Below, piece by piece: positions 39 to 54,551 of a stretch of 64,000 nucleotides of DNA (its first letter is position 1; the number at the start of each line of letters is the position of its first letter). The translations under genes and the position numbers were made by a program. This stretch comes from Thermoplasmata archaeon (lineage in GTDB: Archaea > Thermoplasmatota > Thermoplasmata > GCA-020350865), in assembly GCA_020348445.1 (NCBI GenBank), contig CP070751.1, positions 4,956,303 to 5,020,302 of the forward strand, read 5' to 3'. The notes below the pieces were generated by a model. The model did not search any database. It saw only the letters and a program-made list of their open reading frames with translations, and was not told the DNA's origin.

Positions 39-3011
39 TTATTCATACCTCAAAACTTCTGCAGGTGCGACCCTGGAAGCTAAGGCTGATGGTGGTATCG
101 TCGAAAAAAGCGTCATCCCCAGTGTGATAAGAATAATTATGGCTATGCTTACACCTGGAACGATAAACTCGTAATTTTGGGCTTCAAACAATTTGAAGAA
201 AAGGTTAATCGAGACCACCAGTCCAAGAATCACTCCGATTAAGATTCCGAGAAATGATATATAAGTGGACTCGATAATGAATGCTACCATAACCTGCCGT
301 CTGTTAAATCCAATGGCCCTCATCATCCCAATTTGGGTGCGACGTTCATTAACCGACCGTAATGTGATTATACCAAGCCCTGCAATGCCCACGATCAATC
401 CCAATCCAAGATAAGCGTTGAGGATATTGAAGAAGGACACATTTGCTTCGATTTGTTCCTCGGCCTCTTTTTTGAAGTCCACACTCTGGGCACCGTAGGC
501 CAAAAATGAACGCTCCATATCTTGACGGACTACCAGATTGTCCCCGCTATCCTTGAGCTTGAAAAGTACAGTTCCCACCCCGGTTGCATTGTAATCTTCA
601 ACTAAAAATTCATCGTAGATGAATATTCCGTTGAGCGATTTGTCGGGATCGATAAATGTAACGAACGTGTCTATGAACCCGATTATTGTTACATTGCGTT
701 TTGAACCGTCTTTTAGTGTGACCTCCAGGGTTTCACCGAGCTCGAGAGGCAGGTAAGGGGGCGGACCGAATCCGGCTCCTGCAGTGCTGGAGTCTGCCAG
801 AACATATTCCCTGTTCTGTTTCATCGCGTTAAATGCCCTGTTTGGGTCACCATCAAAATCTGTAATCATTTTCGAAATTTTGAACCTGTTCTGCTCAATG
901 AAATGATCGTCTATTCCAATCACCGGATATTCTACCTGGTCTGAATCTAATATTAATGAATATCTGTTAAAGGTCACTTCGGTATTTTTAAGGGCAAAAT
1001 AATCTTCCACCAGCTCCACCGATTCTGTATCGGTGTAGATCACTTCAAAATCCTCCACAGGTTCCGACATTTTGACCATAAGATCGAAACCACCACTTGT
1101 CTCGTCAATTTGGGCTTCGAGATTTCCCCCGACAATGGCAAGTAGTATCGACATGAAGGTTATTATAAAGATTACAAGCGAGAACATAGCAATGGTCAAT
1201 CCGGTCCTGAACTTGGAGTCAAGAGAATATGAAAGTGCTGTGCGGGACACGGCTATGCAGCAGCCCACAGATGCAAATATTTTCTCGAAAAATCTAACTA
1301 CAATATTTGAGTTTACAATTAACAATAAAACGGTACCGGTCACCATCAATATACCTGCAAGCGCAAATGTGAAGAAATCTTCGGACAGGCCCAGCACCTT
1401 GTCGAACGGAAAGCTCCATAGCGTAATTACAAGTATCCCACTTGTACTGAACGCAATCCGGTCTTTGATATATCTTCTCAAGAAAAATGGTAAGGCAAAA
1501 AATAGAATTGATAACCCCAAGAACAGAGAAGTTGCCGAGCCTTCTTCTGAATCGTCGATCTCGCCGTTTTCATCGTTATCGATCCCGTCGATTAAGGGTG
1601 AAAGGCTCGTCATTATGATAAACAAAGCAAGGATCAGCACGAGCACCCCTATCTTCAAAGATTTTTTACCTCTTTTTGGTTCTGCCGGTTCTGGTAGGTT
1701 GCGAACGGCCCGGATTATGTTGACTTCGCTAATTTTACGCGTTGAGTAGTAAATTGTTAAAATGCTGATAATAAAACCCAGACAGAACGCCAAAAGCAAA
1801 GAATCAAAAGTGAATGTGAACGCTCTGAGAATGTCAGAGGAGGTGCCACCGGTAAAGGCATTTCCAATGGACCATACAATTAAGAACGCCACCAATATGC
1901 CGAAAATGGAACCCACTAGCGCGGCAATGCCGGCGTAGAGACTGCCTTCGTAAACGAACAAGCGTCTTAATTCCAATTTATTCATGCCGATTGCTCGGGT
2001 CATACCCATCTCGGAGCGCCGTTCTTCACCCAACATTATGAAGATATTTATTATTAAAATCACACTTGCGATTATCGTAAAGGAACCAAAGATCAATAAT
2101 AGGTCGGCAAAGAAAAAACCCTCTTCAAACACCTGGTCATATTCGGCCTTCTTGTCTCGGAGCTGGTATAATGGAAATCCCTGATAGCTTATATTGGCAT
2201 TATCGACAAGATCCTTGACCTTACCTGATTTTTCCATACCCGTAAGTTTATCTCCATGGTTCGAGATATGGATGCGGTTGATTTTATTCTCCAATCCCAG
2301 GAGTATCTGTAGGTCTTCTATATTGAGGTACAGCTCAACAGAAGAATAACCGCGATCTTTCAGATCAAGAACTCCCAAAACCGTGAAATTACCAGATCTG
2401 TTCAGATATGAAAATTTAAACCTGTCACCCGGGTCGGCATCAAGTTCTTCTGCTAGATCTTTATTAATAATTATATTATCATCTGGAATGGAACTTACCT
2501 TTTTACCATCAACAAATAGGTTGCCAAATTCATCACTTTTGTCCAGGTATATTCCAGCTACCTCTACCCGTGGTTCTACCAGCGTTTTGTCTATATTGAG
2601 AATGTTAACCTTTTTCCGCAGCTCGGGCTCCATTCCATCGATTGAATTGTCATCACCTATTTTGGTCTCTAAATCATAATAGATATCTATTGGAAAGTCC
2701 AGGGTTTCTTGACTGCCAGGTATTTGGAAAACGTAAACCTCATCAATACCCTGCAGGTCGTCGATTATATCTGAGGCTAAAAGTGTGTTAAAAGTGTCGC
2801 CAACTGTAAACGAAGACGAGATTATTGCGGTGCTTACCATTAACCCTATGATGATAATGACCGAGCTGCCTTTCTTTCTTGAGAAGTTACGGATTGCCAT
2901 TTTAAATAAGATTCGGTTTCTTATTGAGGATATAATTATCCATAATAAAATCAATATAAAGATTATTAAAAATATTAATGTCATCATATCCATAAGCCAA
3001 CTTCCCCTCAA
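39..3011 (-). CDS. ABC transporter permease, FtsX/MacB-like, duplicated architecture
   Basis: 990-aa ORF. Layout is N-terminal TM, long soluble stretch, TM cluster, second soluble stretch, C-terminal TM cluster, as in tandem MacB/FtsX permeases. 4-nt overlap (3008-3011) with the upstream ABC ATPase gene. Confidence 0.7.
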   Translation of the reverse strand: MRGSWLMDMMTLIFLIIFILILLWIIISSIRNRILFKMAIRNFSRKKGSSVIIIIGLMVSTAIISSSFTVGDTFNTLLASDIIDDLQGIDEVYVFQIPGSQETLDFPIDIYYDLETKIGDDNSIDGMEPELRKKVNILNIDKTLVEPRVEVAGIYLDKSDEFGNLFVDGKKVSSIPDDNIIINKDLAEELDADPGDRFKFSYLNRSGNFTVLGVLDLKDRGYSSVELYLNIEDLQILLGLENKINRIHISNHGDKLTGMEKSGKVKDLVDNANISYQGFPLYQLRDKKAEYDQVFEEGFFFADLLLIFGSFTIIASVILIINIFIMLGEERRSEMGMTRAIGMNKLELRRLFVYEGSLYAGIAALVGSIFGILVAFLIVWSIGNAFTGGTSSDILRAFTFTFDSLLLAFCLGFIISILTIYYSTRKISEVNIIRAVRNLPEPAEPKRGKKSLKIGVLVLILALFIIMTSLSPLIDGIDNDENGEIDDSEEGSATSLFLGLSILFFALPFFLRRYIKDRIAFSTSGILVITLWSFPFDKVLGLSEDFFTFALAGILMVTGTVLLLIVNSNIVVRFFEKIFASVGCCIAVSRTALSYSLDSKFRTGLTIAMFSLVIFIITFMSILLAIVGGNLEAQIDETSGGFDLMVKMSEPVEDFEVIYTDTESVELVEDYFALKNTEVTFNRYSLILDSDQVEYPVIGIDDHFIEQNRFKISKMITDFDGDPNRAFNAMKQNREYVLADSSTAGAGFGPPPYLPLELGETLEVTLKDGSKRNVTIIGFIDTFVTFIDPDKSLNGIFIYDEFLVEDYNATGVGTVLFKLKDSGDNLVVRQDMERSFLAYGAQSVDFKKEAEEQIEANVSFFNILNAYLGLGLIVGIAGLGIITLRSVNERRTQIGMMRAIGFNRRQVMVAFIIESTYISFLGILIGVILGLVVSINLFFKLFEAQNYEFIVPGVSIAIIILITLGMTLFSTIPPSALASRVAPAEVLRYE

Positions 3012-3757
3012 TCATTTTCAAAGAAACGTTTATCTGTATAAGCCTCGGGGCAATCGAAATTATAGTCCTTGTTTCGAATATCGGATTCTATCTGGCCGTC
3101 TTTCATGGTGATTTTGCGCGGTACATTTTTTCCGACATTTGGGTCATGGGTTACGATAAGGAATGTTATCCCTTCGCAGCGGTTCAGGTTCATTAAAAGT
3201 TCCATGATTTCTTCACTGTTTTTGGAATCCAGATCGCCTGTGGGTTCATCGGCAAAGACTATTGCCGGAGTATTGGCTAAGGCACGGGCAACCGTGACCC
3301 GCTGGCGTTGGCCACCGGAAAGTTCTGCAGGTTTGTGGGTGGCCCAATCTTTTAAACCCACCAGCTCTAGCATTTTAAGTGCAATTTTTCTTGCTTCTTT
3401 TTGAGATTTTTTCGCCAGAAGTAAGGGAAGTTCGACATTCTCCTGGGCGGATAGCACAGGTAGTAAATTGTAAAATTGAAATACAAATCCAATATTGCGG
3501 GCTCGGTACGCGGATTTTTCTAAATCGTTCAAATTCGCTATATCCTTTCCATCGATTTTAATCTCACCTTCGGTTACATCATCGATACCTGAAAGACAAT
3601 TAAGAAGCGTGGTTTTACCGCAGCCTGAAGGTCCCATAACCGCTACCATTTCACCCTGGATTATATCTAACGAAATGCCGTTAAGAGCAGTGACTTTGAC
3701 GTCCCCTGTGTCGTAAATCTTAACTACATCCTTTGTAGAAATTATTGTTTTTGACAT
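3008..3757 (-). CDS. ABC transporter ATP-binding protein (MacB/LolD-like)
   Basis: Walker A 'GPSGCGKTT', ABC signature 'LSGGQRQRV', Walker B 'VFADEPTGDLD', H-loop 'VTHD'. Confidence 0.9.
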   Translation of the reverse strand: MSKTIISTKDVVKIYDTGDVKVTALNGISLDIIQGEMVAVMGPSGCGKTTLLNCLSGIDDVTEGEIKIDGKDIANLNDLEKSAYRARNIGFVFQFYNLLPVLSAQENVELPLLLAKKSQKEARKIALKMLELVGLKDWATHKPAELSGGQRQRVTVARALANTPAIVFADEPTGDLDSKNSEEIMELLMNLNRCEGITFLIVTHDPNVGKNVPRKITMKDGQIESDIRNKDYNFDCPEAYTDKRFFEND

Positions 3758-3775
3758 GACGCTTCTTATAATAAA

Positions 3776-3788
3776 TAGATATATAAAT
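3776..3788 (-). promoter_or_regulatory. Candidate archaeal TATA box for the ABC operon (near-leaderless)
   Basis: Minus strand reads 'ATTTATATATCTA' about 20-30 nt upstream of the ATG at 3757. No SD-like motif lies in between. Confidence 0.3.
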
Positions 3789-3950
3789 GTTTGTTACTCC
3801 ATTAAGGAAATTATAATACATTTTCGAAAATCCACGGTGATCGGATTTGGTAAGGCATGTGAACCAACAAAATTGTATATAAGAAAATAAACTATTTTCA
3901 TACATAAATTAAAATTAGTAGAATACTAATAAGGTAATATCCCCTTAAAT

Positions 3951-4450
3951 ATGAAGGATGTAGCCAGGGAATCCTTCAGAGTTCTGAAACCGGACCACTT
4001 CTGCGCGATTCTCATAGGAGACACCAGGAGGAACCTGCACTATGTGCCTGTTGCGTTTAGGACTCTCCAGTCTTTCTTGGAGGTTGGGTTTATTCTGAGA
4101 GAGGACATTATAAAACATCAGTGGCAGTGCAAATACTGATATAATATCCGCCGAGGGAGCAGGTGCAAGCGAGTTTCTTTTTGACCCATTTTTTTCTTTG
4201 GAGCTTGCACCATGGTGGCGGATAGAATTTGAACGAATATTATGCCTATCCTCCACTATGTAGTGGAAAACATATTTAGTATCATGAGCAATGTTTTCCA
4301 CAACAGCGGACCGAGGCGTAAAGAAAAAAACGGTGGGTGAAGAAGTCCATGGAGAGCAACTTTTTGATGATTATGCATGAACATCTGTTTGTGTTTCGTA
4401 AGCCAAAAGAAGGAGAAAAAACCAAGAAATTTAAAGAAAGTATGGCTTGA
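3951..4450 (+). pseudogene. 5'-truncated, multiply frameshifted C-terminal remnant of a DNA (N4/N6) methyltransferase
   Basis: Frame 1 gives 'ESFRVLKPDHFCAILIGD...', paralleling 'EMYRVLKNGKYCVIVIGN' in the intact methyltransferase at 45141-46481. After stops and frame changes, a third frame ends 'MHEHLFVFRKPKEGEKTKKFKESMA*' (4367-4450), compare 'ENILIFRKQV*' in the intact gene. No FxGxG or SPPY motifs are found upstream. Confidence 0.6.
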
Positions 4451-4517
4451 AAAGCATATTTCCCCTACGACATATACCGAAAAGCATATATATAACCTTT
4501 TTGTATTTTGTCATCAT

Positions 4518-5450
4518 ATGAAATTAAATAAAAATCAAATAAAGATACTTCGGCTGCTATCGGAGAAAGGATACGGGAGTGTAAGCTCTCTTGCAAAAGT
4601 CCTCAAGCTCAGCCCCTCTCGAACAGATGTACTTCTAAAAGATCTACAGGATCTGGGGCTGGTGGAAATGAAAAGAAGCGGCAAGGCCGTTGAGGTTCAC
4701 ACGAGCATAAACAAACATGCCAAGGCATTTAGAAGATTGGTCACATTAAATCCCCATCTAAGGTACGAGACAATTTTGACAAATCAAAGAATCAATATCT
4801 TGATATCGCTTCTAAGATCCCCAATGACGAAGGGTGATATCTCCTTGGAATTGGATGTGTCTGAAAGGACCATCGAACGTGCACTCTCCTCCTTGATGGA
4901 AAACGGAATTATAATTTCTGAGGGGAGAGCGTTGAAAATCAATCCTCAACATTATGATCTTATGGAGTTTATAAGGGAATTCATCTCGTATGTGAACGTT
5001 AAAATCGCAGGTTCAGAGACGATCATAATCTGGGAATATTTGGATGAATTCATAGTAGAGACGAAAGGGCCTTTGAAACGGCCTGGATTTCTTCTCACGG
5101 GATTTCAGGCACTTGAAGATTTTGGTGTTCCTTTGATCGTAGGTGATTCAAGGCAGTACCTTTACTCTCCTCATAAAATCATCCTAAGGGTAGAGGATGT
5201 GTGTCTACATATAATGATGATAAATCCTCGGAGTATACGGGCCATAACCTACATTGTAATGGCGACTTTGAAGAATAAAGAAATTTGGAATTGGGGATAC
5301 ATGGAATCGGAATCAAAAACATATAATGTTGAGAAAATGATCCGTAGGCTGAAAAAGTTCATCAAGACAAAAGGTAAGGAGAAACCCGAAGATTTTCCAT
5401 CCTGGAAGGAAATAAAAGAGAAAGCAAAAGAGTATGGTATTCATGGCTAG
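4518..5450 (+). CDS. Double winged-helix regulator with C-terminal domain (AbiEi-like antitoxin candidate)
   Basis: Two wHTH-like segments: 'ILRLLSEKGYGSVSSLAKVLKLSPSRTDVLLKDLQDLGLVE' and 'ILISLLRSPMTKGDISLELDVSERTIERALSSLMENGII'. The ATG at 4518 is preferred, because the longer ORF from 4377 runs through the methyltransferase remnant. Overlaps the downstream nucleotidyltransferase gene. Confidence 0.55.
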   Translation: MKLNKNQIKILRLLSEKGYGSVSSLAKVLKLSPSRTDVLLKDLQDLGLVEMKRSGKAVEVHTSINKHAKAFRRLVTLNPHLRYETILTNQRINILISLLRSPMTKGDISLELDVSERTIERALSSLMENGIIISEGRALKINPQHYDLMEFIREFISYVNVKIAGSETIIIWEYLDEFIVETKGPLKRPGFLLTGFQALEDFGVPLIVGDSRQYLYSPHKIILRVEDVCLHIMMINPRSIRAITYIVMATLKNKEIWNWGYMESESKTYNVEKMIRRLKKFIKTKGKEKPEDFPSWKEIKEKAKEYGIHG

Positions 5451-6279
5451 ACGGAAATTCAATTTAAAATACATAGAGAACGAATTAAAGAATATAGGAA
5501 AACGTATTCCAAAGAAGGTAAAAGTAGTTCTGATTGGCGGTGCCAATATGATGTACCGCGGTCTTAAAGCGGCAACCAAAGATGTAGATCTAGTGATCAT
5601 GGATCCCAATGATCTGAAGTTGTTCTCAGAAGCTCTATTTGACTTGGGCTATTTTGAAGTAAAACATCTTTCTAAGGAATATACCAATCTTGGTGCATCT
5701 TCAGTAATGCGAAATGAAGATGGATTTCAATATGACATCTTCTACAAACAGGTGTGCAATGCACTTATCATAACTCCGAGAATAATAAAGAGGGCAGAAA
5801 AATTTGGTCAATTTAAAAACCTAACTGTTTCGTTAATGTCCCCTGAGGACGTGTTCCTTTTTAAAGGGATCACAGAAAGATCAGCAGATTTAGAAGACAT
5901 GAGAATCCTTGTGGAGCAAGGATTGGACTGGGAAATAATATTGGATGAATGCCAAAAACAGGAAGGGGAAAGAATATGGGAAGCTTTTTTACATCTGAAA
6001 TTAGAAGAACTTCAAGATAAATACAGAATCCGTACACCAATAACGGGGAAATTAAGACAAATATCCGAGTATAGACTTTTGAGGGATATGATTACATCAT
6101 TTCTTGGTGATGAAAGAACATACAAGGAGCTATCGGATTATATCCAAGAAAAATTGCATTGTTCTGATTCCTGGATCAGAAAACATATCTCAACCATGTT
6201 AAAGGAAGGCTTAATCCAGAGAAAGAGACATGGTAGGACTTTCATTTACTACCGTGAAAATCCCATAAAAAAAGATTAA
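5434..6279 (+). CDS. Minimal nucleotidyltransferase-fold protein with C-terminal wHTH (AbiEii/DUF6036-like toxin candidate)
   Basis: 'VVLIGGANMMYRGLKAATKDVDLVI' fits the G[GS]-x(9-13)-D-x-D nucleotidyltransferase motif. 'PEDVFLFKGITERSADLEDM' is also typical of this fold. The C-terminus 'YKELSDYIQEKLHCSDSWIRKHISTMLKEGLIQRKRHGR' looks like a wHTH. 8-17 nt overlap with the upstream gene. Confidence 0.5.
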   Translation: MVFMARRKFNLKYIENELKNIGKRIPKKVKVVLIGGANMMYRGLKAATKDVDLVIMDPNDLKLFSEALFDLGYFEVKHLSKEYTNLGASSVMRNEDGFQYDIFYKQVCNALIITPRIIKRAEKFGQFKNLTVSLMSPEDVFLFKGITERSADLEDMRILVEQGLDWEIILDECQKQEGERIWEAFLHLKLEELQDKYRIRTPITGKLRQISEYRLLRDMITSFLGDERTYKELSDYIQEKLHCSDSWIRKHISTMLKEGLIQRKRHGRTFIYYRENPIKKD

Positions 6280-9605: not shown

Positions 9606-10403
9606 TCAATTCACATACTCCAAGGTCCACACATCAGTCACTCCAGTATAGTGGATCCAAAGACCCTGCCCGGGTCGTAATAGGTTGAGGTTGTCAGAGG
9701 TGTAAGAACCAGGGTCCCAGCTTTCCCATAAACCAGAACTCGCATTGTACCACATAACCATGTCCACGTCCACAGGTAAACCTGAGGAATCTGGCGGTCT
9801 CTCTATCAAGGATGGATAACCAACGAAGTTCCAACCATAATTTAACGTGATCTTGTTGACATATCCGGTTTCAGGGCCAGTGCCATCGACATATAATGTA
9901 GTTCCCAATGGATTGGTTATGTGAATCCATAACCCCATGTGTTTGTCAACATCTGTTAAATCGTTTAGCGAGGATGGTTTCTTAATATGATAGTGTTTCC
10001 AGGGGTCAACTGGATCGGCGATATCAAACCACTGCACTGTGTCATAATCTCCTGATATGTTCTCCAATGCCTTTCCAAGATTCGTTTCGGTCCGATTTAG
10101 AGGCAAAGAAATCATATTCCAGCCTAGCTCTAAATCTATGGGAAATTTCGTCGTGAAGGTAAAATCTCTGCTTATACTATAATTTATAGAATCATTGTAT
10201 GAGGTGATTCTGAAGTGATACAGTCTACCCGGTTCAAGATCGATCAGGTTATAACTATGAAGGATTTTCATGTTGTTGTCCTGAAATGTGAAGCCGTAAG
10301 CTGTGGTCAAACCATACTCGAGAGTGCTATTAGCGGGTCTATTGCTTCTCCATATAATGGTTGCCTTTGTATCTGTGATGTCATGCACTTGAATATTAAA
10401 GAT
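9606..10403 (-). repeat. Conserved FN3 + C-terminal-domain cassette, copy A
   Basis: The 3' 800 nt are homologous at nucleotide and protein level to 14369-15166, 17337-18134 and 22508-23305. All four end in '...GLW[IV]HYTG.TDVW[ST]LEYVN*'. Confidence 0.85.
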
Positions 10404-12818
10404 TATCAACGGAAATGTAGTGAAATAAATATCAAGGCCATTCTCTCGAGGATCCTGCCAGACGAGAAAGATGTTACCAATTGGGTCAACTGCGATATCT
10501 GGTTGACGTTGGTGTAATTCCTCTATGTCATTGTTGACCCTTTTATTGATAGAGAAGGTGTTTCCACCATCATTGGAATTGGCATAATAGATATCAGTAT
10601 CGGTAAAACCGTTTCTGTTATCTTCCCAGGCGATATAAATGTTACCTACACCCTCTGCTGCAATAGATGGATAGTATTGCCATACAGAGGAACCATCGTC
10701 ATTGACCTTTTTATTGGCAGAGAAGGTGTTGCCACCATCAGCAGAGTTTGCGAAATAGATATCAGAATCGCCGTTTCGCTCATCGTACCAAGCAATATAA
10801 ACATTGCCAGCACTGTCAACTGCTAATGAGGGATTACGTTGCTGTTCTGAACCAACATCGTCATTGACCTTTTTGTTAGGAGAAAATGTGTTTCCACCGT
10901 CAGTAGAATTCGCAAAATAAATATCAGAATTGCCATTTCGAGAATCCCTCCATGCGATATAGATCTCCCCCATATCCAATGCTGTAATAGATGAATCACT
11001 ATGTGAAGCTCCGGCAAGATCGTCATTGATCTTTTTATTTGGAGAAAAAGTGTTTCCGCCGTTAGTGGAATTCGTAAAATAGATATCCCAATTACCGCTT
11101 CGATGATCGGACCAGGTGATATAGATATAACCTGAATTATCAACTGTTATAGAGGGGGAATCTTGCCATTCCCCTATACCATCATCATTGACAATTTTAT
11201 TGGTTGAAAAAGTATTTCCCCAGTCACTAGAATTAGCAAAGTAGATATCTGTATCACCATTTCGCCAATCGTACCACACGATATAGACGTTACCGATATT
11301 ATCCACTGCAATACATGGACCTGCCTGCTCGAAAGCCCCAACATCATCATTTATTTTTTTATTTACTGAGAAGTTGCTCCCACCAGAGGTTGAGCATGCA
11401 AAATAGATGTCAGAATCACCATTTCGCTCATCCTGCCAAACTACATAGATATTGCCTGCATCATCCACAGCTATTGCGGATTCATATTGATATGCCTTTT
11501 TCAAATCGTCGTTTAGCTTTTTATTAGTTGAGAATGTATTTCCCTGGTCAGTTGAATTTGCAAAATAAATATCGTAATTGCCATTTCGATTATCCTGCCA
11601 GGTGATATAGATAGTCCCTGTATTGTCCAATGCCATAGTGACAGCATTTTGCGTTGTGCTACCAACATCGTCATTTACTCTTTTATTTACTGAAAAGGTG
11701 ACTCCATTATTGGTAGAATTGGCAAAATAGATATCTGGATTACTGTTTCGCCGATCATCCCATGTGATATAGATGTTACCTACTGTATCAATTGCTACAA
11801 ACGGATCGTATTGAGATACCCCGCTTCCATCATCGTTGATCTTTTTATTTGATGAGAAGGTATTTCCGCCATCAGTAGAGTTGGCAAAATAGATGTCCCA
11901 GCTACCATCTCGATTATCCTCCCAAACAAGATAAATATTGTTAGCACCTTTTGCGCTTATATGTGAAGTGCTTTGCCCTGCTGCGATACCATCATCATTG
12001 ACCTTTTTATTGGGAGAAAAAATGTTTCCCCTATCAGTAGAATTCACAAAATAGATATCTGAATCACCGTTTCGAGTATCTGTCCAGGCAATGTAGATTT
12101 TGCCCGCATTATCCACAGTTATGGATGGTTCAAGTTGAAATGCCGAGCCCGCATCGTCATTTACCTTTTTATTGGGTGAAAAGGTGCTCCCGCCATCAGT
12201 AGAATTTGCAAAATAGATATCATCATCACCATTTCTTTTATCTGTCCATACAACGTAAATGTCCCCTGCATCGCTAACCGCTATGGATGGAAAGTCTTGA
12301 ATCGTTCCACCAACATCATCATCAATTCTTTTATTGACTGAGAATGTGTTTCCACTATCAATGGATTTAGCAAAATAAACGTCACGATCACCATTTCGTT
12401 CATCTATCCAGACAACATAGATATAGCCTGTATCATCTACTGCAATGGAGGGATTATACTGCGTGGTCTCACTCCCGTCGTCATTAATCTTCTTATTGGC
12501 TGAGAAAGTTATCCCCCCGTCGGTAGAGTTTGCAAAATATATGTCACTGTTACCGTTTCGATTATCATCCCATGCGATATATATGTTGGCTGCATCGTTT
12601 ACTGCTATGGAGGGGCCATATTGTGAGGCAGTACCAGGAACCATAACGATTTCATTGACCCTTACATTGGATCCAAATGGTAAATCTGCTTTCACTTGAA
12701 TAAAAAGATAGGAAATCAGCAGTATAGCTGTTAAGATAGCATGCACTTTCAAGAAATTTCGCACTTCTCGATATTTTTTAAAGAAGTAATATGGTGCTGT
12801 CCTCATATTTTCCTCCAT
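9606..12818 (-). CDS. Secreted/surface protein: N-terminal signal anchor, about 14 BNR/Asp-box propeller blades, FN3, conserved 183-aa C-terminal domain
   Basis: About 13.5 tandem 52-aa units, each with 'DIYFANSTDGGNTFS' (Asp-box S-x-D-x-G-x-T-F/W). Then FN3-like 'IQVHDITDTKATIIWRSNRPANSTLEYG...GRLYHFRITSYN'. Then the C-terminal domain shared with 14369, 17337 and 22508. Confidence 0.8.
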   Translation of the reverse strand: MEENMRTAPYYFFKKYREVRNFLKVHAILTAILLISYLFIQVKADLPFGSNVRVNEIVMVPGTASQYGPSIAVNDAANIYIAWDDNRNGNSDIYFANSTDGGITFSANKKINDDGSETTQYNPSIAVDDTGYIYVVWIDERNGDRDVYFAKSIDSGNTFSVNKRIDDDVGGTIQDFPSIAVSDAGDIYVVWTDKRNGDDDIYFANSTDGGSTFSPNKKVNDDAGSAFQLEPSITVDNAGKIYIAWTDTRNGDSDIYFVNSTDRGNIFSPNKKVNDDGIAAGQSTSHISAKGANNIYLVWEDNRDGSWDIYFANSTDGGNTFSSNKKINDDGSGVSQYDPFVAIDTVGNIYITWDDRRNSNPDIYFANSTNNGVTFSVNKRVNDDVGSTTQNAVTMALDNTGTIYITWQDNRNGNYDIYFANSTDQGNTFSTNKKLNDDLKKAYQYESAIAVDDAGNIYVVWQDERNGDSDIYFACSTSGGSNFSVNKKINDDVGAFEQAGPCIAVDNIGNVYIVWYDWRNGDTDIYFANSSDWGNTFSTNKIVNDDGIGEWQDSPSITVDNSGYIYITWSDHRSGNWDIYFTNSTNGGNTFSPNKKINDDLAGASHSDSSITALDMGEIYIAWRDSRNGNSDIYFANSTDGGNTFSPNKKVNDDVGSEQQRNPSLAVDSAGNVYIAWYDERNGDSDIYFANSADGGNTFSANKKVNDDGSSVWQYYPSIAAEGVGNIYIAWEDNRNGFTDTDIYYANSNDGGNTFSINKRVNNDIEELHQRQPDIAVDPIGNIFLVWQDPRENGLDIYFTTFPLIIFNIQVHDITDTKATIIWRSNRPANSTLEYGLTTAYGFTFQDNNMKILHSYNLIDLEPGRLYHFRITSYNDSINYSISRDFTFTTKFPIDLELGWNMISLPLNRTETNLGKALENISGDYDTVQWFDIADPVDPWKHYHIKKPSSLNDLTDVDKHMGLWIHITNPLGTTLYVDGTGPETGYVNKITLNYGWNFVGYPSLIERPPDSSGLPVDVDMVMWYNASSGLWESWDPGSYTSDNLNLLRPGQGLWIHYTGVTDVWTLEYVN
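10496..12656 (-). repeat. Tandem coding repeats (156-nt BNR blade units, about 13.5 copies)
   Basis: I counted 14 occurrences of the D[IV]Y[FY] blade motif in the translation. Boundaries are approximate. Confidence 0.7.
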
Positions 12819-33162: not shown

Positions 33163-36100
33163 TTATAAATTGATCTGTCCCGACACTCCGCAGGAAGGAC
33201 ATTTTATTGTGTTTGGTCCCTTTTTAAGGTTTATCTTGAAGGCATTTTTGCACTTAGGGCATCTGATGGTCTTGGTGAAAGTGGGCTCTGTCTCGGTTGG
33301 AACAGGAGGTGGTGGTGCAGGGGGAGGAGGTGGTGCTGCCACGGGGGGAGGAGGCTGACTGATAGGTTGCGGTTGTTCAACTTGCGGAGTCACAACAGGT
33401 GCAGCTACTTCTGCGGGAGGTACAGGCGGTGCTGCTGAGACTTCTTGTGCAACAGGTGCTACGGCTGGGATCACAGGTGGTATAACCTCGGTTTTCTTCT
33501 TTTTCCTTGTTAGAAGCATCACCACAAGAAGCACAACAAGGACGATGATGATCACCAAAAGAAGAAGATACATCATCATTTTGTCGCCTTCATCTGCATC
33601 ATTTGTTGTTGTTCCATTATCTTTCTCACCGTCATCTTCTTCATTGGGATCTGATCCTGCTTGCTGCTCCTGTAGATTTGTTAAACCGTCATTATCGGGA
33701 TCATCCTCAGGCCCGTAATTTAAATTGCCGAAATGCTCCTGCTCCCAGCTGTCGAGCAGTCCATCTGAATCGCTGTCTTCTTCATCTACCTCGATTGTTA
33801 TGTTGATCATATCCTGACCTGTGCCATCGTCTTTGTCGGTCACTGTCAAAGTCACGGGATAATCTCCTGGCTCATCGTATGTATAAGTCGGGGATTCGGA
33901 AGAGGAGGTTTGACCGTCCCCGAAATCCCATAAAAAGGAGAGAGACGATGCTGAATCTTCGGAATCTGAAACAGTGGCTGAAAACGATACTGTCAGATCA
34001 TTCTGATTCTCTGATGTATCGATATTCACGGTGGGAATGTTGTTTTTGATGTCCAATGCATTGTATTTGTACATCAAATAACTTGAATCATCACCATCAC
34101 TGAAGCTCACTCGGAAGCTGTAATCCCCTAAATCAGCATCTTTCGGAGGAGATAACTCAACCTGCCACTGCCCACTGATGTACATTGGTGTGCCAAGATA
34201 GGAGGTATCCCAGAAAAATTCATCTAGGGAGTACTCGAACGTGGGAATGAGATCATCCTCATCCTTTTCGTCGTCCTGAGCATTGGCATAAAGGTATATC
34301 ACATCTTCTCGAAAGACCTCAGTATCAGATAAGCTAAGATCCAATACACTTGGGATGTTGTTTTTTACCTCAAGGCTCTCGTTGAGATAATACCAGTTGC
34401 TGTAATCACTATCCGAATCCAGGAGCCTTACCCTGAAATCATAGTCCCCGATCGCAAAAGTGGTAGAAGGTGTAAAGCTCACCTCGAAGCGGTTGTTCGA
34501 ATAACTGTAGCTTGCGCCTGAAAGATCGTTCCACGTGGAAGAACTGGAGGGTTTATACTGGAATGTAGACGTCATATCAGAAGGTAAGTTCTCTAAATCG
34601 GAACCCGTGGCATAGATAACAACTGACTCGGTTCTGTAGATCTGAGAGGATGTAACATCTATCGTGTCCACGGAGGGTAAGCTGTTTTGCACTGTTATTA
34701 TTCCCGATAGAACAAGCCAATTAGAAAAACCACCGTTGGAATCATAAAATCCTACCCTGAACTCATAATCACCCAATGTCATATCAAAGGGAGGGGAGAA
34801 TTCGATTCTCCATTGCTCATTAATGTATGTCTTTCCCGAAAAAGAGGTGTTATACCAGGAGCCACTTCCTGCGATTCGATAGTAAAATTCTGTTTTTAAA
34901 CTATTCTCGGGATCCTCGATGTCAGATCCATTTGCATAGATGTAAAGCGAGGAGCCTCGAACGACCTCAAAGCCAGAGGAGGATATGCTATCAGCCTGTG
35001 GAAGATTGTTGTTCACGACAACGCTTTGGTTTTCATAGATCCATTCACTAAAACTCAAGGCAGAATCGTTGAATCTAATCCTGAAATCGTAGGTGCTCAA
35101 CAAAGCATTTGCCGAGGGAGTGAAATTTATTCTCCACTGGCCCCCTACATAGACGGGCTCAAAGAGATAGTTTGTGGTCCAGATCGTACTTCCTGATTCC
35201 TTGCACTCAAAGTGCGGTGTAATACCAGCTTCGGAATCCTCAACATCATCCCCGTTTGCATATATGAATATCGTCTCTGTACGAAGCACATTTGAGGAGG
35301 ATATGAGAATATTGGTAGTGGTTGGAGCGTTGTTTTTTACCTCAACACCATCATAGACATATATGAAGTCACTTAAATCTCCTGCAGTATCGTTGAACCT
35401 CACCCTGAAATCATAGGTGCCCAGGACAGCATCATAAGAAGGAGAGAAGGTAATTCTCCACCGCCCTCCAGTATACGTGGGGGCAGACAGATAATCGGTT
35501 GCCCAACCAGTGCCCTCAGGATCATTGTATTCGAATACCGCATCGAGCAGATCCTCAGAATCCTCGGTATCTGTTCCATTGGCATAAATGTAAATGGATT
35601 GTGTTCTGAATACTGTATCGCTTTCCACTATCAGGTCCAAAACTTCTGGTGGATTATTTTTCACTTCAACATTATCATAAACATATAAAAAGTCACTTAA
35701 ATCTCCTGTTGTATCGCTGAATCTCACCCTGAAATCGTAGGTGCCCAGGGCAGCATCATAAGAAGGAGAGAAGCTAACCATCCACTGCCCTCCGGTATAC
35801 GTGGGGGCAGACAGATAATCAGTTGCCCAACCAGTGCCCTCAGGATCATTGTATTCAAATATCGCATCGAGCATATCCTCAGAATCCTCTGTATCCATTC
35901 CATTGGCATAGATGTAAATGGATTGCGTTCTGAAGACAGAGTTACTTTCCATTGTCAGATCCAAAACCACAGGGGGATTGTTTTCCACCAAAACGCTATC
36001 GTTGGCATATACGAAGCCACTAAATGCTTCTAGGGTATTTTTGAATCTCACCCTTAAGTCGTACCAGCCCAGAGGTGCAAGAACAGACGGGGAAAAGGGT

Positions 36101-38472
36101 ATGGTCCAGTAGCCTGAAGGGGGGGATCCAAAATAAGTTGCCGGGCCCGAAAAATAAGTGGTGTTCCATATGGAGACATTGGGGTCCTGGTACTCGAAAA
36201 ATGGTGTGAGTTGATCTTCTAAGTCTTGGGAATCACTGCAATTTGCGTGTATGAAGATGGTGTTGTTTCTCAGAAGGCTTTGGGGGCTTCCGCCATGGGG
36301 TGAAATATCAATGGCCACAGGCTTGGATTTTATCACGACTGTAACATTGCGGCTCTTCCAAATCACTGGACGAGACATTCCAGATTCAGCTCCTTTTTGG
36401 GCACTCACATTATGAGGTGTTGTGTTATTTTTACCAGCCGAGGTCTGGACATATTCTGTTGCAATGATCCATTTAATCCAACCGTTGTTGCCAAATCCTG
36501 TGTTTCCGCTCCATTCTGTGACTCCAAAGAGGTCATTTACCATGACATCTGCATCGTCCACTCCAAAACCTAAAAAATCTTCCACCTTAACATCCAGGAA
36601 CCATTTGACTTTGAGGTCCGATTCAGAATCCTCAACACGGACAGAGGAGTTGTCATGGGAAGTGTTGAGGGCTATAACATGGGAGTTGCTAGTCAAGTTG
36701 AAGTCATATGAGATGGAGGAAATGGAGGAGTTGGTGATGTTCAATATTGAGTCTATGCACGTTATGCCGTACAGGTTGTTGTTGAAAGTTGAGTTGATGA
36801 TCTCAATATCCCTGCTCTCTATGGAAACGATTCCACTAGCCGCATTGTCAGATACTATGTTGTCCTCAAAAATACCAGATCCTTTGAAATAATCAAAATA
36901 TACGCCATCCCAATTTTGGCTGCCTGAAAAATCGTTGTTCTTAACTGTAAAACTTCCGCCATTTAACGTGAATAGATAGAAATTATAGTCCCAGTTGTTT
37001 TTGACTTCATTATTCGTCATGGTAAGAGATATGCTATCATAAGAATCAAATATCACGCCTGGTCCAAAGTTATCGTTGAAGTTATTGTTGTGAATCGAGC
37101 AGGTTTGGTTTTTAAACGAAACAGCATAAAGTGCATAATCACCACTTAGCACCTCGTTTCTCTCCGAAGTAAGATATAAGTTCTCGGCAGACCAGATTTC
37201 TATGCCTGATCCGCTGGTGTCGACGATCCTGTTATCTGTGATTTCTGCATATACGGTCCTGTTTCCCGGGGTATTATAGAAATAATCAATTAATATTCCT
37301 CCTATGTTATTCCACAACTCGTTATTTCCAACGCGGTATCGGCTCTCAGCATCCTCAGCATAGGAATACATAGCTCCCCAAGTGGTGTTGGTAATATTGT
37401 TGTTATACACCTCAGCATTGATAGGGCCCCAGTTTTCCACATAAATGCCGTCGTTATTGTCCTGTATTTTGTTATGGGAGATGTTGTAAGTGATATTTGT
37501 TCCAAGTCCCATCCAGTTATTGGTGAGCCAGATACCGTAATAATTACTTGTCAAGTTGTTGTTCAGAATTGTGGCGTTGAGTGTGGCTCTGTCTCCCTCA
37601 GCTATGATAAATATCCCTTCATAACCGTTTTTTTCTATGTTGTTGTCGTTTATCGTGGCTATGATATCCTCCAAACCCGAGAATATGAAGATACCGTTTT
37701 CTGTATTATTTATTATATCGTTACCAGATAAAGTGGCTGTGATTGAGCCGATATCTGAACTGATATCAATACCGCCGAATCCTCCACGGTTGTCCATGAT
37801 AACATTATCTGTGACTGAAATGGTGAGGTCAGCAAGCACAGCCTCTATCTTGATTCCAGATTCGCTGTTATTTGAGACGTTGTTGTTTGTGAGGGTAATA
37901 TCAGGATGTGTGCCATTTATACCCCAGACATTTTTCGTTATTATGTTATTGTCGATTGTGATGGGATTAACAGAATCGATATGGATGCCTTCTTCTGCAT
38001 ATTCTATGTGGCAAAATTGAATTTCTCCTCCTCCGCCAGAGAAATCCAATGAGCTCCAATTCCCGGGACCAGGTGTACTGCTGTTTGAGGTGAATGTGAT
38101 TCTAGAACCAAGCGTGCCCACGCAAGAAAGGGTCCCTTCAACTATTATGCTAAAGGATCCGTTGAAGTAAATGTTGCAGCCGGCTTCGATTGTCAAGGTA
38201 TAACCAAAGTTCACAGTGTAATTTCCCTCGATATAATGATCTGGTACAGAGTTTGCCCATCTGACTTGAGAAAGGATTGGGTCCGCATCATTTGGCCCGT
38301 TATCCTCATCTGAGCAGCTGGCAGAACCAGTATTCCCGTGTGTGTTTCCAGATACCATAGGATATAAGGTTGGGATAACTAGCACAACAATACTTGCAAG
38401 CAACGTAAAGGTTACGGTGAGTGTGAATATCCTCCTCAAAAGAGGCCCACTTTTTTTAGATTTAGGAGACAT
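33163..38472 (-). CDS. Giant surface adhesin-like protein: signal peptide, right-handed beta-helix repeats, 7 Ig-like repeats, PKD domain, Ca-binding-type Asp repeats, TM, Pro-rich cytoplasmic tail, C-terminal zinc ribbon
   Basis: PbH1-like 'NN[IL]..N...GI.[IL]' periodicity over aa 150-600. Seven units of about 108 aa. PKD 'FLWDFGDGQTSSSESPTYTYDEPGDYPVTLTVTDKDDG'. 'DSDSDGLLDSWE...DPDNDGLTNLQE'. TM 'MMMYLLLLVIIIVLVVLLVVMLL'. Tail 'PPPPVAAPPPPPAPPPPVP'. Zinc ribbon 'CPKCKNAFKINLKKGPNTIKCPSCG'. Confidence 0.85.
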   Translation of the reverse strand: MSPKSKKSGPLLRRIFTLTVTFTLLASIVVLVIPTLYPMVSGNTHGNTGSASCSDEDNGPNDADPILSQVRWANSVPDHYIEGNYTVNFGYTLTIEAGCNIYFNGSFSIIVEGTLSCVGTLGSRITFTSNSSTPGPGNWSSLDFSGGGGEIQFCHIEYAEEGIHIDSVNPITIDNNIITKNVWGINGTHPDITLTNNNVSNNSESGIKIEAVLADLTISVTDNVIMDNRGGFGGIDISSDIGSITATLSGNDIINNTENGIFIFSGLEDIIATINDNNIEKNGYEGIFIIAEGDRATLNATILNNNLTSNYYGIWLTNNWMGLGTNITYNISHNKIQDNNDGIYVENWGPINAEVYNNNITNTTWGAMYSYAEDAESRYRVGNNELWNNIGGILIDYFYNTPGNRTVYAEITDNRIVDTSGSGIEIWSAENLYLTSERNEVLSGDYALYAVSFKNQTCSIHNNNFNDNFGPGVIFDSYDSISLTMTNNEVKNNWDYNFYLFTLNGGSFTVKNNDFSGSQNWDGVYFDYFKGSGIFEDNIVSDNAASGIVSIESRDIEIINSTFNNNLYGITCIDSILNITNSSISSISYDFNLTSNSHVIALNTSHDNSSVRVEDSESDLKVKWFLDVKVEDFLGFGVDDADVMVNDLFGVTEWSGNTGFGNNGWIKWIIATEYVQTSAGKNNTTPHNVSAQKGAESGMSRPVIWKSRNVTVVIKSKPVAIDISPHGGSPQSLLRNNTIFIHANCSDSQDLEDQLTPFFEYQDPNVSIWNTTYFSGPATYFGSPPSGYWTIPFSPSVLAPLGWYDLRVRFKNTLEAFSGFVYANDSVLVENNPPVVLDLTMESNSVFRTQSIYIYANGMDTEDSEDMLDAIFEYNDPEGTGWATDYLSAPTYTGGQWMVSFSPSYDAALGTYDFRVRFSDTTGDLSDFLYVYDNVEVKNNPPEVLDLIVESDTVFRTQSIYIYANGTDTEDSEDLLDAVFEYNDPEGTGWATDYLSAPTYTGGRWRITFSPSYDAVLGTYDFRVRFNDTAGDLSDFIYVYDGVEVKNNAPTTTNILISSSNVLRTETIFIYANGDDVEDSEAGITPHFECKESGSTIWTTNYLFEPVYVGGQWRINFTPSANALLSTYDFRIRFNDSALSFSEWIYENQSVVVNNNLPQADSISSSGFEVVRGSSLYIYANGSDIEDPENSLKTEFYYRIAGSGSWYNTSFSGKTYINEQWRIEFSPPFDMTLGDYEFRVGFYDSNGGFSNWLVLSGIITVQNSLPSVDTIDVTSSQIYRTESVVIYATGSDLENLPSDMTSTFQYKPSSSSTWNDLSGASYSYSNNRFEVSFTPSTTFAIGDYDFRVRLLDSDSDYSNWYYLNESLEVKNNIPSVLDLSLSDTEVFREDVIYLYANAQDDEKDEDDLIPTFEYSLDEFFWDTSYLGTPMYISGQWQVELSPPKDADLGDYSFRVSFSDGDDSSYLMYKYNALDIKNNIPTVNIDTSENQNDLTVSFSATVSDSEDSASSLSFLWDFGDGQTSSSESPTYTYDEPGDYPVTLTVTDKDDGTGQDMINITIEVDEEDSDSDGLLDSWEQEHFGNLNYGPEDDPDNDGLTNLQEQQAGSDPNEEDDGEKDNGTTTNDADEGDKMMMYLLLLVIIIVLVVLLVVMLLTRKKKKTEVIPPVIPAVAPVAQEVSAAPPVPPAEVAAPVVTPQVEQPQPISQPPPPVAAPPPPPAPPPPVPTETEPTFTKTIRCPKCKNAFKINLKKGPNTIKCPSCGVSGQINL
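34045..36335 (-). repeat. Seven tandem ~324-nt coding repeats (Ig-like domains); units 2 and 3 (35335-35982) are near-identical
   Basis: The unit signature is 'R[TG][QE]S[IL]YIYANG.D.ED.E..L...FEY......W......G.....G.W...FSP......G.Y.FRVRF.D'. Confidence 0.8.
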
Positions 38473-53273: not shown

Positions 53274-53454
53274 CTACACTCCCTACAAGTTACTATACGA
53301 ATTGATAAGATAAAATGTTTTTGCATGTATCGATTTTTGTATACTATTTAACAAGCCCACGCCCCATATACGATCACAATTGAGACTTCGCACTGAACTG
53401 CCGAGCCGCAGGATAAATTCTATCTTGGCAAATCAACATTTTTTTGAATCCCAG

Positions 53455-54327
53455 CTATCCTTTTGTGCCCCTGGCCCATTCCCTTCTTCTCTCTTTGTTG
53501 GTCATCACAATTTCTTCTTCCTTGAATTCAGATTCAGCCTCGGCCAGATACTCGATGGCCTTAAGCAGCCCCACTTTGGAAGGGCTTCTTACATCCAAAC
53601 CTGCCCGCAAGAGCTCTTGGCGCAGCAATGTCATGGCCAGTCTATCGTCCTCGAATCCCTCACAGAAATCCACAATGATGGCGTCTGTTGCCCCAATCAG
53701 TGTTCCCCTGTCAGTATGCCTGTAGATTCCCTGGGCCACCAGATTTTCATACAACTCCGCAATCGGGTCCTTGGGTTTCTTTTCAGAAAGAACCATATAT
53801 CCAAGACTCTGAAAAATATTTTCAACGTTATCTCCCGTTTTCGCGCTTGTTGAATACGTTGTTTTGAGATTTAGGGGCAGATCATTTTCAACGCCAACAT
53901 TATATTTTGACGCAATCTTCTCCATTTCTTCGGGCTGGAAGGCATATTCGCCCTCCAGATCCTTTTTATTGCATGCAAAGACCAATGGAACATTATTAAC
54001 GACATTGAACAAAACTGGGATCCAATATCGCTCAAGGCTGTCAAGGGTTTCGCGCCTTGTTAGGTCGGCAACAAGAAAAGCACCGTGAACCCCTGAAAAT
54101 GTTCTTGAATGAAGTGCCGTATATCCCGCTCTACCCAGCACATCCCAGATCATGAGATTGAGGTCTACTTCCAGATCGCCTTTTGGAATGGTCAGGCTTT
54201 TTTTGGAAACTTTGGTACCGATGGTTGATATATATGAATCCTCGAACTTGTCGAAAACAAAACGCCGAATCATACTGGTCTTTCCTACGGCGCTGTCCCC
54301 CAAAAGGACAATTTTCTTTAAGACCAT
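53455..54327 (-). CDS. Rab/Ras-like small GTPase with ~110-aa C-terminal extension
   Basis: G1 'GDSAVGKTS', switch I 'SYISTIGT' (identical to the Rab 'SYISTIG'), G3 'WDVLGR', G4 'NKKD', G5 'TSAK'. Confidence 0.85.
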   Translation of the reverse strand: MVLKKIVLLGDSAVGKTSMIRRFVFDKFEDSYISTIGTKVSKKSLTIPKGDLEVDLNLMIWDVLGRAGYTALHSRTFSGVHGAFLVADLTRRETLDSLERYWIPVLFNVVNNVPLVFACNKKDLEGEYAFQPEEMEKIASKYNVGVENDLPLNLKTTYSTSAKTGDNVENIFQSLGYMVLSEKKPKDPIAELYENLVAQGIYRHTDRGTLIGATDAIIVDFCEGFEDDRLAMTLLRQELLRAGLDVRSPSKVGLLKAIEYLAEAESEFKEEEIVMTNKERRREWARGTKG

Positions 54328-54551
54328 AGTCTCTCCTCATCTCCGCTGATATATATTAGTAACACCGTATATAGATATTTCTTTACTTTGGTGAGATTTT
54401 TTTACTTTTAGAAAGAATAATTAAATCCTCCGGAGGTTGAGGGGATATCAGATTCCCCTTCACTTTCTAAACTTGTTTTTTCATCGTCCATAAAAAGTAT
54501 AAATTAACTTTTTCATATAAAGCGTCGTAACTTGACTTGGGGACAGACCTT

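Follow-up and report, generated by a model that had tools for sequence, protein, structure and literature searches.

What is a Rab-like small GTPase doing in a Thermoplasmata archaeon, with an arginine where its catalytic glutamine should be and an extra domain of no recognized family at its C-terminus? The question is raised by a 290-codon open reading frame (ORF), here called P0001, which runs from ATG to TAG on the minus strand at positions 53455-54327 of the window, i.e. the whole 64,000-nucleotide stretch of contig CP070751.1 (GenBank assembly GCA_020348445.1) that was analysed. The window is part of one single 5.16-Mb contig. An earlier note, made from the letters of the DNA, had described the ORF as a eukaryote-like Rab/Ras GTPase with an altered G3 motif and an uncharacterised C-terminal extension, and had taken it as an Asgard hint for the contig. 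In the explanation that we favour, and hold with moderate confidence, P0001 is a Rab-like nucleotide-binding switch of the Thermoplasmatota that carries a private helical tail and belongs to a clade marked by the arginine; it would hydrolyse GTP slowly or in dependence on a partner, and would be controlled by longin-like regulators.

A conserved Rab-like G domain

The N-terminal part of P0001 is readily recognized as a G domain. Pfam Ras matches residues 5-176 (5.6e-28, 98 bits; cut-off 21.6), NCBIfam small_GTP (TIGR00231) scores 58.1 bits (cut-off 42.5), and the motif set of the Ras superfamily (GxxxxGK[ST], the G2 Thr, DxxG, NKxD and SAK) is complete. The Pfam Roc model matches residues 5-123 (2.1e-22, 80 bits; cut-off 27) and is outscored by Ras, and Gtr1_RagA gives a weak match to residues 5-101, the N-terminal half of the domain (1.1e-3, 18.9 bits; cut-off 22). 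When P0001 is compared with PDB sequences using phmmer, the best solved-structure match is the Thorarchaeota Rab 7ezb (2e-21), followed by Rab1, Rab11 and Sec4. Foldseek likewise aligns the G domain with Rabs at template modelling (TM) scores of 0.72-0.80 by target. The likeness to Rab motifs that can be seen by eye is only partial (IGTKV, MIWDVLGR, LVADLT). The full-length structure model has a predicted TM score (pTM) of 0.71, and its predicted local distance difference test (pLDDT) is low at residues 28-38, as expected of a mobile switch. The ligands of Mg and of the gamma-phosphate (T17, T35, D62 and G65) are invariant in alignment A1.

Much of what the earlier note had read from this ORF stands. 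All five G-boxes are where it saw them, the Rab-like character of the G domain is borne out by the solved-structure matches and by Foldseek, and the C-terminal string that it quoted is found at residues 210-268. It had also reported that there is no C-terminal prenylation Cys, and indeed the protein ends in ...WARGTKG; its only cysteines are C119 and C222, and none of the eukaryotic Rab prenylation motifs (CC, CXC or CAAX) is present.

An indexed sequence search returned 1455 homologues at E<=1e-3, which NCBI names 'Rab family GTPase' or 'GTP-binding protein'; all of the best 120 of them are ~286-334 aa long. In comparisons with two orthologues, the G domain has a ratio of nonsynonymous to synonymous substitution rates (dN/dS) of 0.07-0.08 and the extension one of 0.11-0.12, although dS is saturated. 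Most of the stretch is present, with one difference, in a second sediment sample from the same study. The number of homologues, the purifying selection and the copy in the second sample together place this gene far beyond a chance ORF.

Arginine in place of the catalytic glutamine

In phmmer alignments of P0001 to Rab1a, Rab11 and the Thorarchaeota Rab, Arg66 falls in the very column of their catalytic Gln. It is invariant in alignment A1. Among the best 120 of the 1455 homologues, 118 are readable at this position, and they comprise 113 with Arg, 5 with Ser and none with Gln. The exchange of Gln for Arg, already pointed out in the earlier note, is therefore not only real but a fixed trait of a clade. 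In the wider family of proteins with the C-terminal domain, reduced to representatives at 50% identity, Gln is dominant (70 cases).

A maximum-likelihood tree of 110 G domains, rooted at its midpoint, unites the Arg proteins in one clade of 17 Arg rows and two nested Ser rows, with a support of 99 in the SH-like approximate likelihood ratio test (SH-aLRT). Within it, P0001 is sister to P0002 (support 97), and the clade as a whole is nested inside a Gln-majority family. Since the tree is midpoint-rooted, the direction of the change between Gln and Arg has to be taken from the majority state. Read in this way, the switch-II Gln would have become Arg once in the clade, with a later change to Ser in one sub-branch, and an 11-aa insert would have been gained before G5.

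This insert is the clade's other mark. The spacing between G4 and G5 is 37 in all six Arg-type paralogues of the genome versus 24-30 in all those of the Gln and Leu types. L150, P151 and L154 of the insert are nearly invariant, and it appears as a gap in the aligned Thorarchaeota Rab. P0001 has each of the features by which we recognize the clade, namely a G3 of the form WDxxGR (or with S), the insert and a place within the monophyletic group.

A five-helix C-terminal domain

Folded alone with AlphaFold2 (AF2) from a 44-sequence alignment, the C-terminal domain (hereafter the C-domain) gives a confident five-helix bundle (pLDDT 90.7, pTM 0.82), with helices at residues 188-199, 210-223, 228-241, 251-265 and 271-286. 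Its core is acidic, with an isoelectric point (pI) of 4.3. Across the wider C-domain family D215, F221, P249 and L261 are kept, and R236 is 84% conserved. A hidden Markov model (HMM) of the domain finds P0001 as its top match in the genome, at 142 bits, and P0001 shows the combination that defines the family, a Rab-like G domain followed by a ~105-aa helical domain with a D..(I)..DFC ... P ... L core. Conservation can also be seen at the DNA level. Short metagenome contigs of paralogues and relatives map solely to 53618-53697, 54122-54167 and 54266-54300, which correspond to helix 2 of the C-domain (DAIIVDFCEGF), the G3 region and the P-loop, respectively; the core of the C-domain is thus as conserved in DNA as the nucleotide-binding motifs.

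The C-domain is an autonomous module that also occurs as a separate ORF. In this genome, the HMM search finds 18 fused copies and three stand-alone ORFs, one of which lies directly upstream of a STAND gene pair. An indexed search for stand-alone C-domains gave only 10 matches, which may be fragments because they are mostly on short contigs.

Comparison with known families and folds gave little. Residues 183-290 of P0001 have no Pfam or NCBIfam match. When the members of alignment A2 of the C-domain were compared with Pfam, each family was matched by one member only (best E 7e-4), and the C-domain profile reached a best E of 0.22 against PDB sequences. Foldseek against the PDB found nothing at E<1 (best E 1.6), and the best Z of a wide VIA-align search, 6.6, is within the noise range that the tool states for helical bundles. 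The best shape matches in the ESM Atlas are the same domain in GTPases of the Thermoplasmatota. Weaker Atlas matches cover a four-helix core at TM 0.57-0.63 and include 79-aa archaeal hypothetical proteins, Myxococcota HATPase_c proteins and DUF8082; as resemblances between predicted structures, these are leads only. An Atlas feature search that excluded GTPase families gave no usable match. The extension that the earlier note called uncharacterised is accordingly a conserved ~105-aa domain of no known family, and modelling of the AlphaFold type, which that note had proposed for the tail, yields a confident fold with no convincing match to a known domain. This makes the C-domain of interest in itself, as a conserved module for which neither Pfam families, nor PDB sequences, nor solved folds offer a convincing counterpart.

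Two roles for the C-domain were considered and rejected. DNA binding does not fit an acidic core, and no helix-turn-helix family was matched. A homotypic adaptor of the EAD or death-like kind, pairing with STAND proteins, was set aside on the result of an HMM search of those proteins, which is given below.

A Thermoplasmata rather than an Asgard gene

The earlier note's Asgard hint does not hold. The homologue loci in named genomes are all deposited as metagenome-assembled genomes of Thermoplasmata, Methanomassiliicoccales, Methanobacteriota, Lutacidiplasmatales or DHVE2, and Methanomassiliicoccales belong to the class Thermoplasmata of the phylum Thermoplasmatota. Two of these loci are syntenic with the window and have neighbouring genes 77-90% identical to its own. 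They are L011 ('Thermoplasmata archaeon'; RACo 78%, ECH 83% and PurN-like 77% identical) and L019, on CP070739.1 ('Methanomassiliicoccales archaeon'; RACo 83% and MFS 90%). The ESM Atlas clusters of the family are labelled Thermoplasmatota or Methanobacteriota. In a sample of 301 genomes from the window's phylum, the C-domain turned up in 15, which represent 13 of 138 genera; most of these 15 genomes are large (2.8-5.5 Mb) and have several copies each.

A single homologue, P0075 (locus L049, Joint Genome Institute (JGI) sample 3300041085), bears a Hodarchaeales label. Its only contig marked as an NCBI source is 6.9 kb long and belongs to the JGI sample series that also yielded the Thermoplasmata relatives. 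The locus has the STAND-GTPase-RHH cassette (RHH, ribbon-helix-helix) typical of those relatives, and P0075 is sister, with short branch lengths, to a paralogue from the target's own genome. The label probably reflects a mis-binned contig. The idea that P0001 is a eukaryote-like or Asgard-type trafficking Rab, obtained from Asgard archaea or held in common with them, and that it shows the contig to be Asgard, can draw on this label and on the fact that the closest solved relatives are Thorarchaeota and eukaryotic Rabs. The named syntenic relatives, the distribution of the C-domain, the Atlas labels, the small size of P0075's contig and the missing prenylation Cys all speak against it. As to taxonomy it is largely refuted, and we regard it as very improbable overall.

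Gene neighbourhoods and candidate partners

Of the 25 homologue loci that we examined, 18 belong to relatives and seven, including one Gln-type locus, to this genome. Thirteen of the loci contain a gene for a STAND AAA_16-TPR ATPase of ~900-1040 aa, in most cases as the immediate neighbour of the GTPase gene, and eight contain a gene for a CopG-like RHH protein. The STAND ATPase has an insert of ~125 aa, which in P0271 lies at residues 88-215. No Pfam family matches the insert at E<=10, and its predicted structure resembles a longin domain (TM 0.73/0.68 to a Fuz_longin_1 cluster).

The surroundings of P0001 itself include genes for a RACo-like corrinoid activase, an MFS transporter, a PurN-like formyltransferase, HAD and PfkB proteins, and a thermosome. 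The block PfkB, HAD, PurN-like, slot, GTPase, RACo, MFS, ECH, x, CysRS is kept in relatives. The slot, which separates the GTPase from the PurN-like gene, is empty in the window and variable in relatives. On the contig of P0002 (L045, slot at 1550-5896) it holds four unrelated genes, which encode two methyltransferases, a radical-SAM enzyme and an unknown protein of 427 aa; on that of the orthologue P0005 it holds a STAND AAA_16-TPR gene and a second GTPase. Upstream of the ATG of P0001, the DNA contains AT-rich TATA-like stretches and a GAGGAG Shine-Dalgarno-like motif at 6-11 nt. The features of the locus are listed in Table 1. Elsewhere in the window there are two very long ORFs, at 33163-38472 (-), 1769 aa, and 9606-12818 (-), 1070 aa.

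Table 1. Features of the P0001 locus, in window coordinates
Feature	Position	Strand	Basis or remark
Complete coding sequence of P0001, 290 aa	53455..54327	(-)	ATG start, TAG stop at 53455-53457; start and length common to homologues
Rab-like G domain, residues 1-182	53782..54327	(-)	Pfam Ras, PDB match, Foldseek
G1/P-loop GDSAVGKT, residues 10-17	54277..54300	(-)	G10, G15, K16 and T17 invariant in alignment A1
Switch I/G2 SYISTIGT, residues 31-38	54214..54237	(-)	T35 invariant in A1
G3 WDVLGR, residues 61-66	54130..54147	(-)	Arg66 = AGA at 54130-54132; Ras Gln61 position
G4 NKKD, residues 120-123	53959..53970	(-)	Motif reading
Clade-specific ~11-aa insert, residues ~145-157, between helix 4 and strand 6	53857..53895	(-)	Alignment gap, G4-G5 spacing
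G5 TSAK, residues 160-163	53839..53850	(-)	Motif reading
C-terminal five-helix domain, residues 186-290	53458..53772	(-)	AF2, conservation, dN/dS
Upstream intergenic region, 224 nt (the variable slot)	54328..54551	(-)	Direct sequence reading
Downstream intergenic region, 181 nt, then RACo-like gene	53274..53454	(-)	No RHH gene there

The genome encodes 34 Ras-like GTPases, a count of a size so far associated with Asgard archaea. Eighteen of them have the C-domain, and these divide into six with Arg in G3 (the target included), ten with Gln and two with Leu. The other 16 are short and mostly of the Gln type. Tandem paralogues lie at 5073501-5075465 of the genome. Looking for roadblock or longin partners, as the earlier note had advised, was worthwhile, since domains of both types are present in the genome. 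Pfam Robl_LC7 (PF03259) is found in six ORFs, none of them near the target; one (3660256-3660420) adjoins a short GTPase whose G3 reads WDIIGD.

Outside the window, the genome also encodes four giant surface proteins of 1635-5179 aa with PKD, He_PIG, LamG/FG-GAP and Big_9 domains (4118138-4123045, 3706549-3717366, 3137498-3153037 and 2657441-2669188). A hydrophobic segment is present at the N-terminus of all four. In three of them, the C-terminal end consists of a single transmembrane helix and, after it, a longin-like cytoplasmic domain of ~120 aa; the fourth (2657441-2669188) has its longin-like domain at residues 2898-3018 of 3915. Single-pass phmmer searches show that this domain is homologous to the STAND insert (E 1e-7 to 1e-18). 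The giant genes lie 121-541 nt from Rab-like GTPase genes, tandem arrays of three and six included. One of these places is a split cassette (4117783-4123714) consisting, in this order, of a 113-aa C-domain ORF, the 1635-aa longin-tailed PKD protein and a short Gln-type GTPase that has no C-domain. In the manner of a Rosetta stone, such a cassette hints at cooperation between the G domain, the C-domain and the longin domain.

Proposed function and alternatives

In the switch that we favour, binding of GTP and Mg would be intact, because G1-G5 are canonical. With the catalytic Gln absent, hydrolysis would have to do without the Ras/Rab Gln mechanism, and would be intrinsically slow or partner-dependent. 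Judging by R1398 of LRRK2, Arg66 is likely to sense the gamma-phosphate and to keep switch II ordered. The earlier note's suggestion of a slow or GAP-dependent GTPase with a fused effector or localisation domain is likewise plausible. Longin/roadblock-like domains are probably the natural regulators, given that most members of the clade adjoin a STAND AAA_16-TPR ATPase with such an insert, and the CopG-like RHH protein that is often next in order would be the likely output. The acidic C-domain would act as an autonomous module for protein-protein interaction. The role that we prefer for it is homo- or hetero-oligomerization between paralogues, or the docking of partners, comparable to what is seen in Rag proteins, although the fold is different. 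Since there is no partner gene beside the window copy, P0001 would be served in trans by partners encoded elsewhere.

Several observations weigh against this proposal. The target is an orphan, with no adjacent STAND, RHH or longin gene, and no RNA run was found to hold the gene. The C-domain HMM finds zero copies inside STAND proteins. The longin-like nature of the STAND insert comes from similarity between predicted structures, and the roles given to the C-domain and to Arg66 are analogies.

Other explanations dispense with a working cycle or with outside regulators. If the Arg clade held GTP (or GDP) constitutively, P0001 would be a pseudo-GTPase scaffold, i.e. a non-cycling adaptor whose C-domain recruits partners. 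The absence of Gln from every readable sequence among the best homologues would suit such a protein, as would the Ser tolerated at position 66 in a sub-branch, an indication that the position does not call for one particular catalytic chemistry. Against this, complete G1-G5 motifs with invariant T17, T35, D62 and G65, and a G-domain dN/dS of 0.07, are typical of an active cycle, and LRRK2 still hydrolyses GTP with the same Arg; we think a scaffold unlikely. The C-domain could instead be a built-in regulator that packs against the G domain, contributing residues for catalysis or auto-inhibition (for example R236/Q237 or D215) either in cis or, within a dimer, in trans. It would then replace an external GTPase-activating protein (GAP), much as in G proteins that dimerization activates. 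The full-length pTM suggests a defined arrangement of the domains, D215 is invariant and R236 highly conserved in the wider family, and the clade's insert is located close to G5 and helix 5, beside the start of the C-domain. This explanation is nevertheless doubtful, as paralogues of the Gln type have the C-domain just as well without requiring any substitute, and the domain also exists as a separate ORF.

Two further explanations start from the neighbouring genes. The STAND AAA_16-TPR proteins have weak BrxC/BrxD similarity, the RHH proteins are of the CopG_antitoxin type, and the slot upstream of the target varies between relatives, all of which would fit a conflict, defence or toxin-antitoxin-like module (STAND sensor, GTPase and RHH) of which the window copy is a decaying or domesticated remnant. 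PADLOC-DB 2.0, however, has no match to P0001, the RHH protein or a stand-alone C-domain (E<=0.01), and matches the STAND protein with generic TPR models only; moreover, strong purifying selection on the target and its synteny in at least four relatives show that it is not decaying. A defence role therefore seems rather improbable to us. The GTPase might also serve the adjacent RACo-type activase or corrinoid enzymes, in the manner of the G-protein chaperones of B12 enzymes. GTPase and RACo genes adjoin in the window, in L011, in L045 and on the contig of P0005, but these genomes are closely related and the whole block is syntenic, so that the adjacency cannot count as independent support. In the remaining 20 homologue loci, no RACo gene adjoins the GTPase (L019 has one ~2 kb downstream), the absence of adjacency is already seen in more distant genomes, and the two genes have separate promoter-like spacers and are 181 nt apart. 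We find a metabolic accessory role highly unlikely.

Beyond the switch itself, a broader reading can be entertained as a tentative and rather less probable proposal. Large-genome Thermoplasmata may have evolved eukaryote-style longin-GTPase signalling outside the Asgard archaea, with dozens of Rab-like switches, with longin-like domains inside STAND ATPases and at the cytoplasmic ends of giant surface proteins as regulators, with C-domains that pair the GTPases into Rag-like hetero-oligomers, and with one clade in which an LRRK2-type Arg that senses the gamma-phosphate was independently reinvented in place of the catalytic Gln. Expanded repertoires of Ras-superfamily GTPases with longin/roadblock partners are used as markers that link Asgard archaea and eukaryotes. 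Here, a non-Asgard archaeon has 34 such GTPases, and genes with longin-like domains lie beside several of them, which makes these markers less exclusive than assumed.

Comparison with known systems

No paper was found on this GTPase family in Thermoplasmatota, and the family is not described in the survey of the prokaryotic Ras superfamily by Wuichet & Sogaard-Andersen (2014, PMC4316618). Among prokaryotic systems, MglA-MglB and Rup offer a parallel, as Ras-superfamily switches that are genetically linked to regulators of the roadblock/longin type. P0001 is not an MglA. The G3 of its clade is WDxxGR and not of the MglA type, no MglB/Roadblock (PF03259) gene is adjacent to it, and the probable regulator domain forms part of a STAND ATPase or of the cytoplasmic tail of a giant surface protein, in contrast to the stand-alone MglB.

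Rag/Gtr proteins resemble P0001 in having a small G domain followed by a C-terminal domain of ~100 aa, and in their association with longin/roadblock-type partners. The paralogue pairs and arrays of the present family suggest hetero-oligomers, as in Rag/Gtr. The C-terminal domain of Rag proteins, however, has the alpha/beta fold of roadblock, whereas the C-domain is all-helical, and for this reason P0001 is not a Rag protein.

With the ROC domain of LRRK2, P0001 shares an Arg for the switch-II Gln in DxxGR and a further domain after the G domain. No COR domain was found in P0001, which also has no kinase or repeats, and it is therefore probably not a ROCO protein. The COR domain is far longer than ~105 aa. 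Among the listed Foldseek and VIA-align matches of the C-domain there is no Roco/LRRK2 chain, and a distant kinship is possible despite the missing fold match. In LRRK2, Arg1398 occupies the Gln61 position while GTPase cycling is retained, and it has been proposed as a gamma-phosphate sensor; it was called unique to LRRK2 among the 20 Roco proteins examined (PMC13345514). The Arg of the P0001 clade arose independently, inside a Gln-bearing archaeal family, and the clade is thus a natural counterpart of the LRRK2 R1398 substitution. A small soluble archaeal protein of this kind could be a simple model for studying how the gamma-phosphate is read when an Arg occupies the Gln61 position.

The closest known systems are the archaeal Rab-like proteins of Lokiarchaeum and Thorarchaeota (7ezb), which are single-domain proteins with a short C-terminus that keep the catalytic Gln and have no prenylation Cys (Surkont & Pereira-Leal 2016, PMC4915359). 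P0001 has in common with them the G-domain fold, the Rab-like switch I and the missing prenylation Cys, and so it, too, is without the prenylation motif of a true Rab. It is new relative to these GTPases in four respects: the Arg, the 11-aa insert before G5, the 105-aa helical domain and a host from the Thermoplasmatota.

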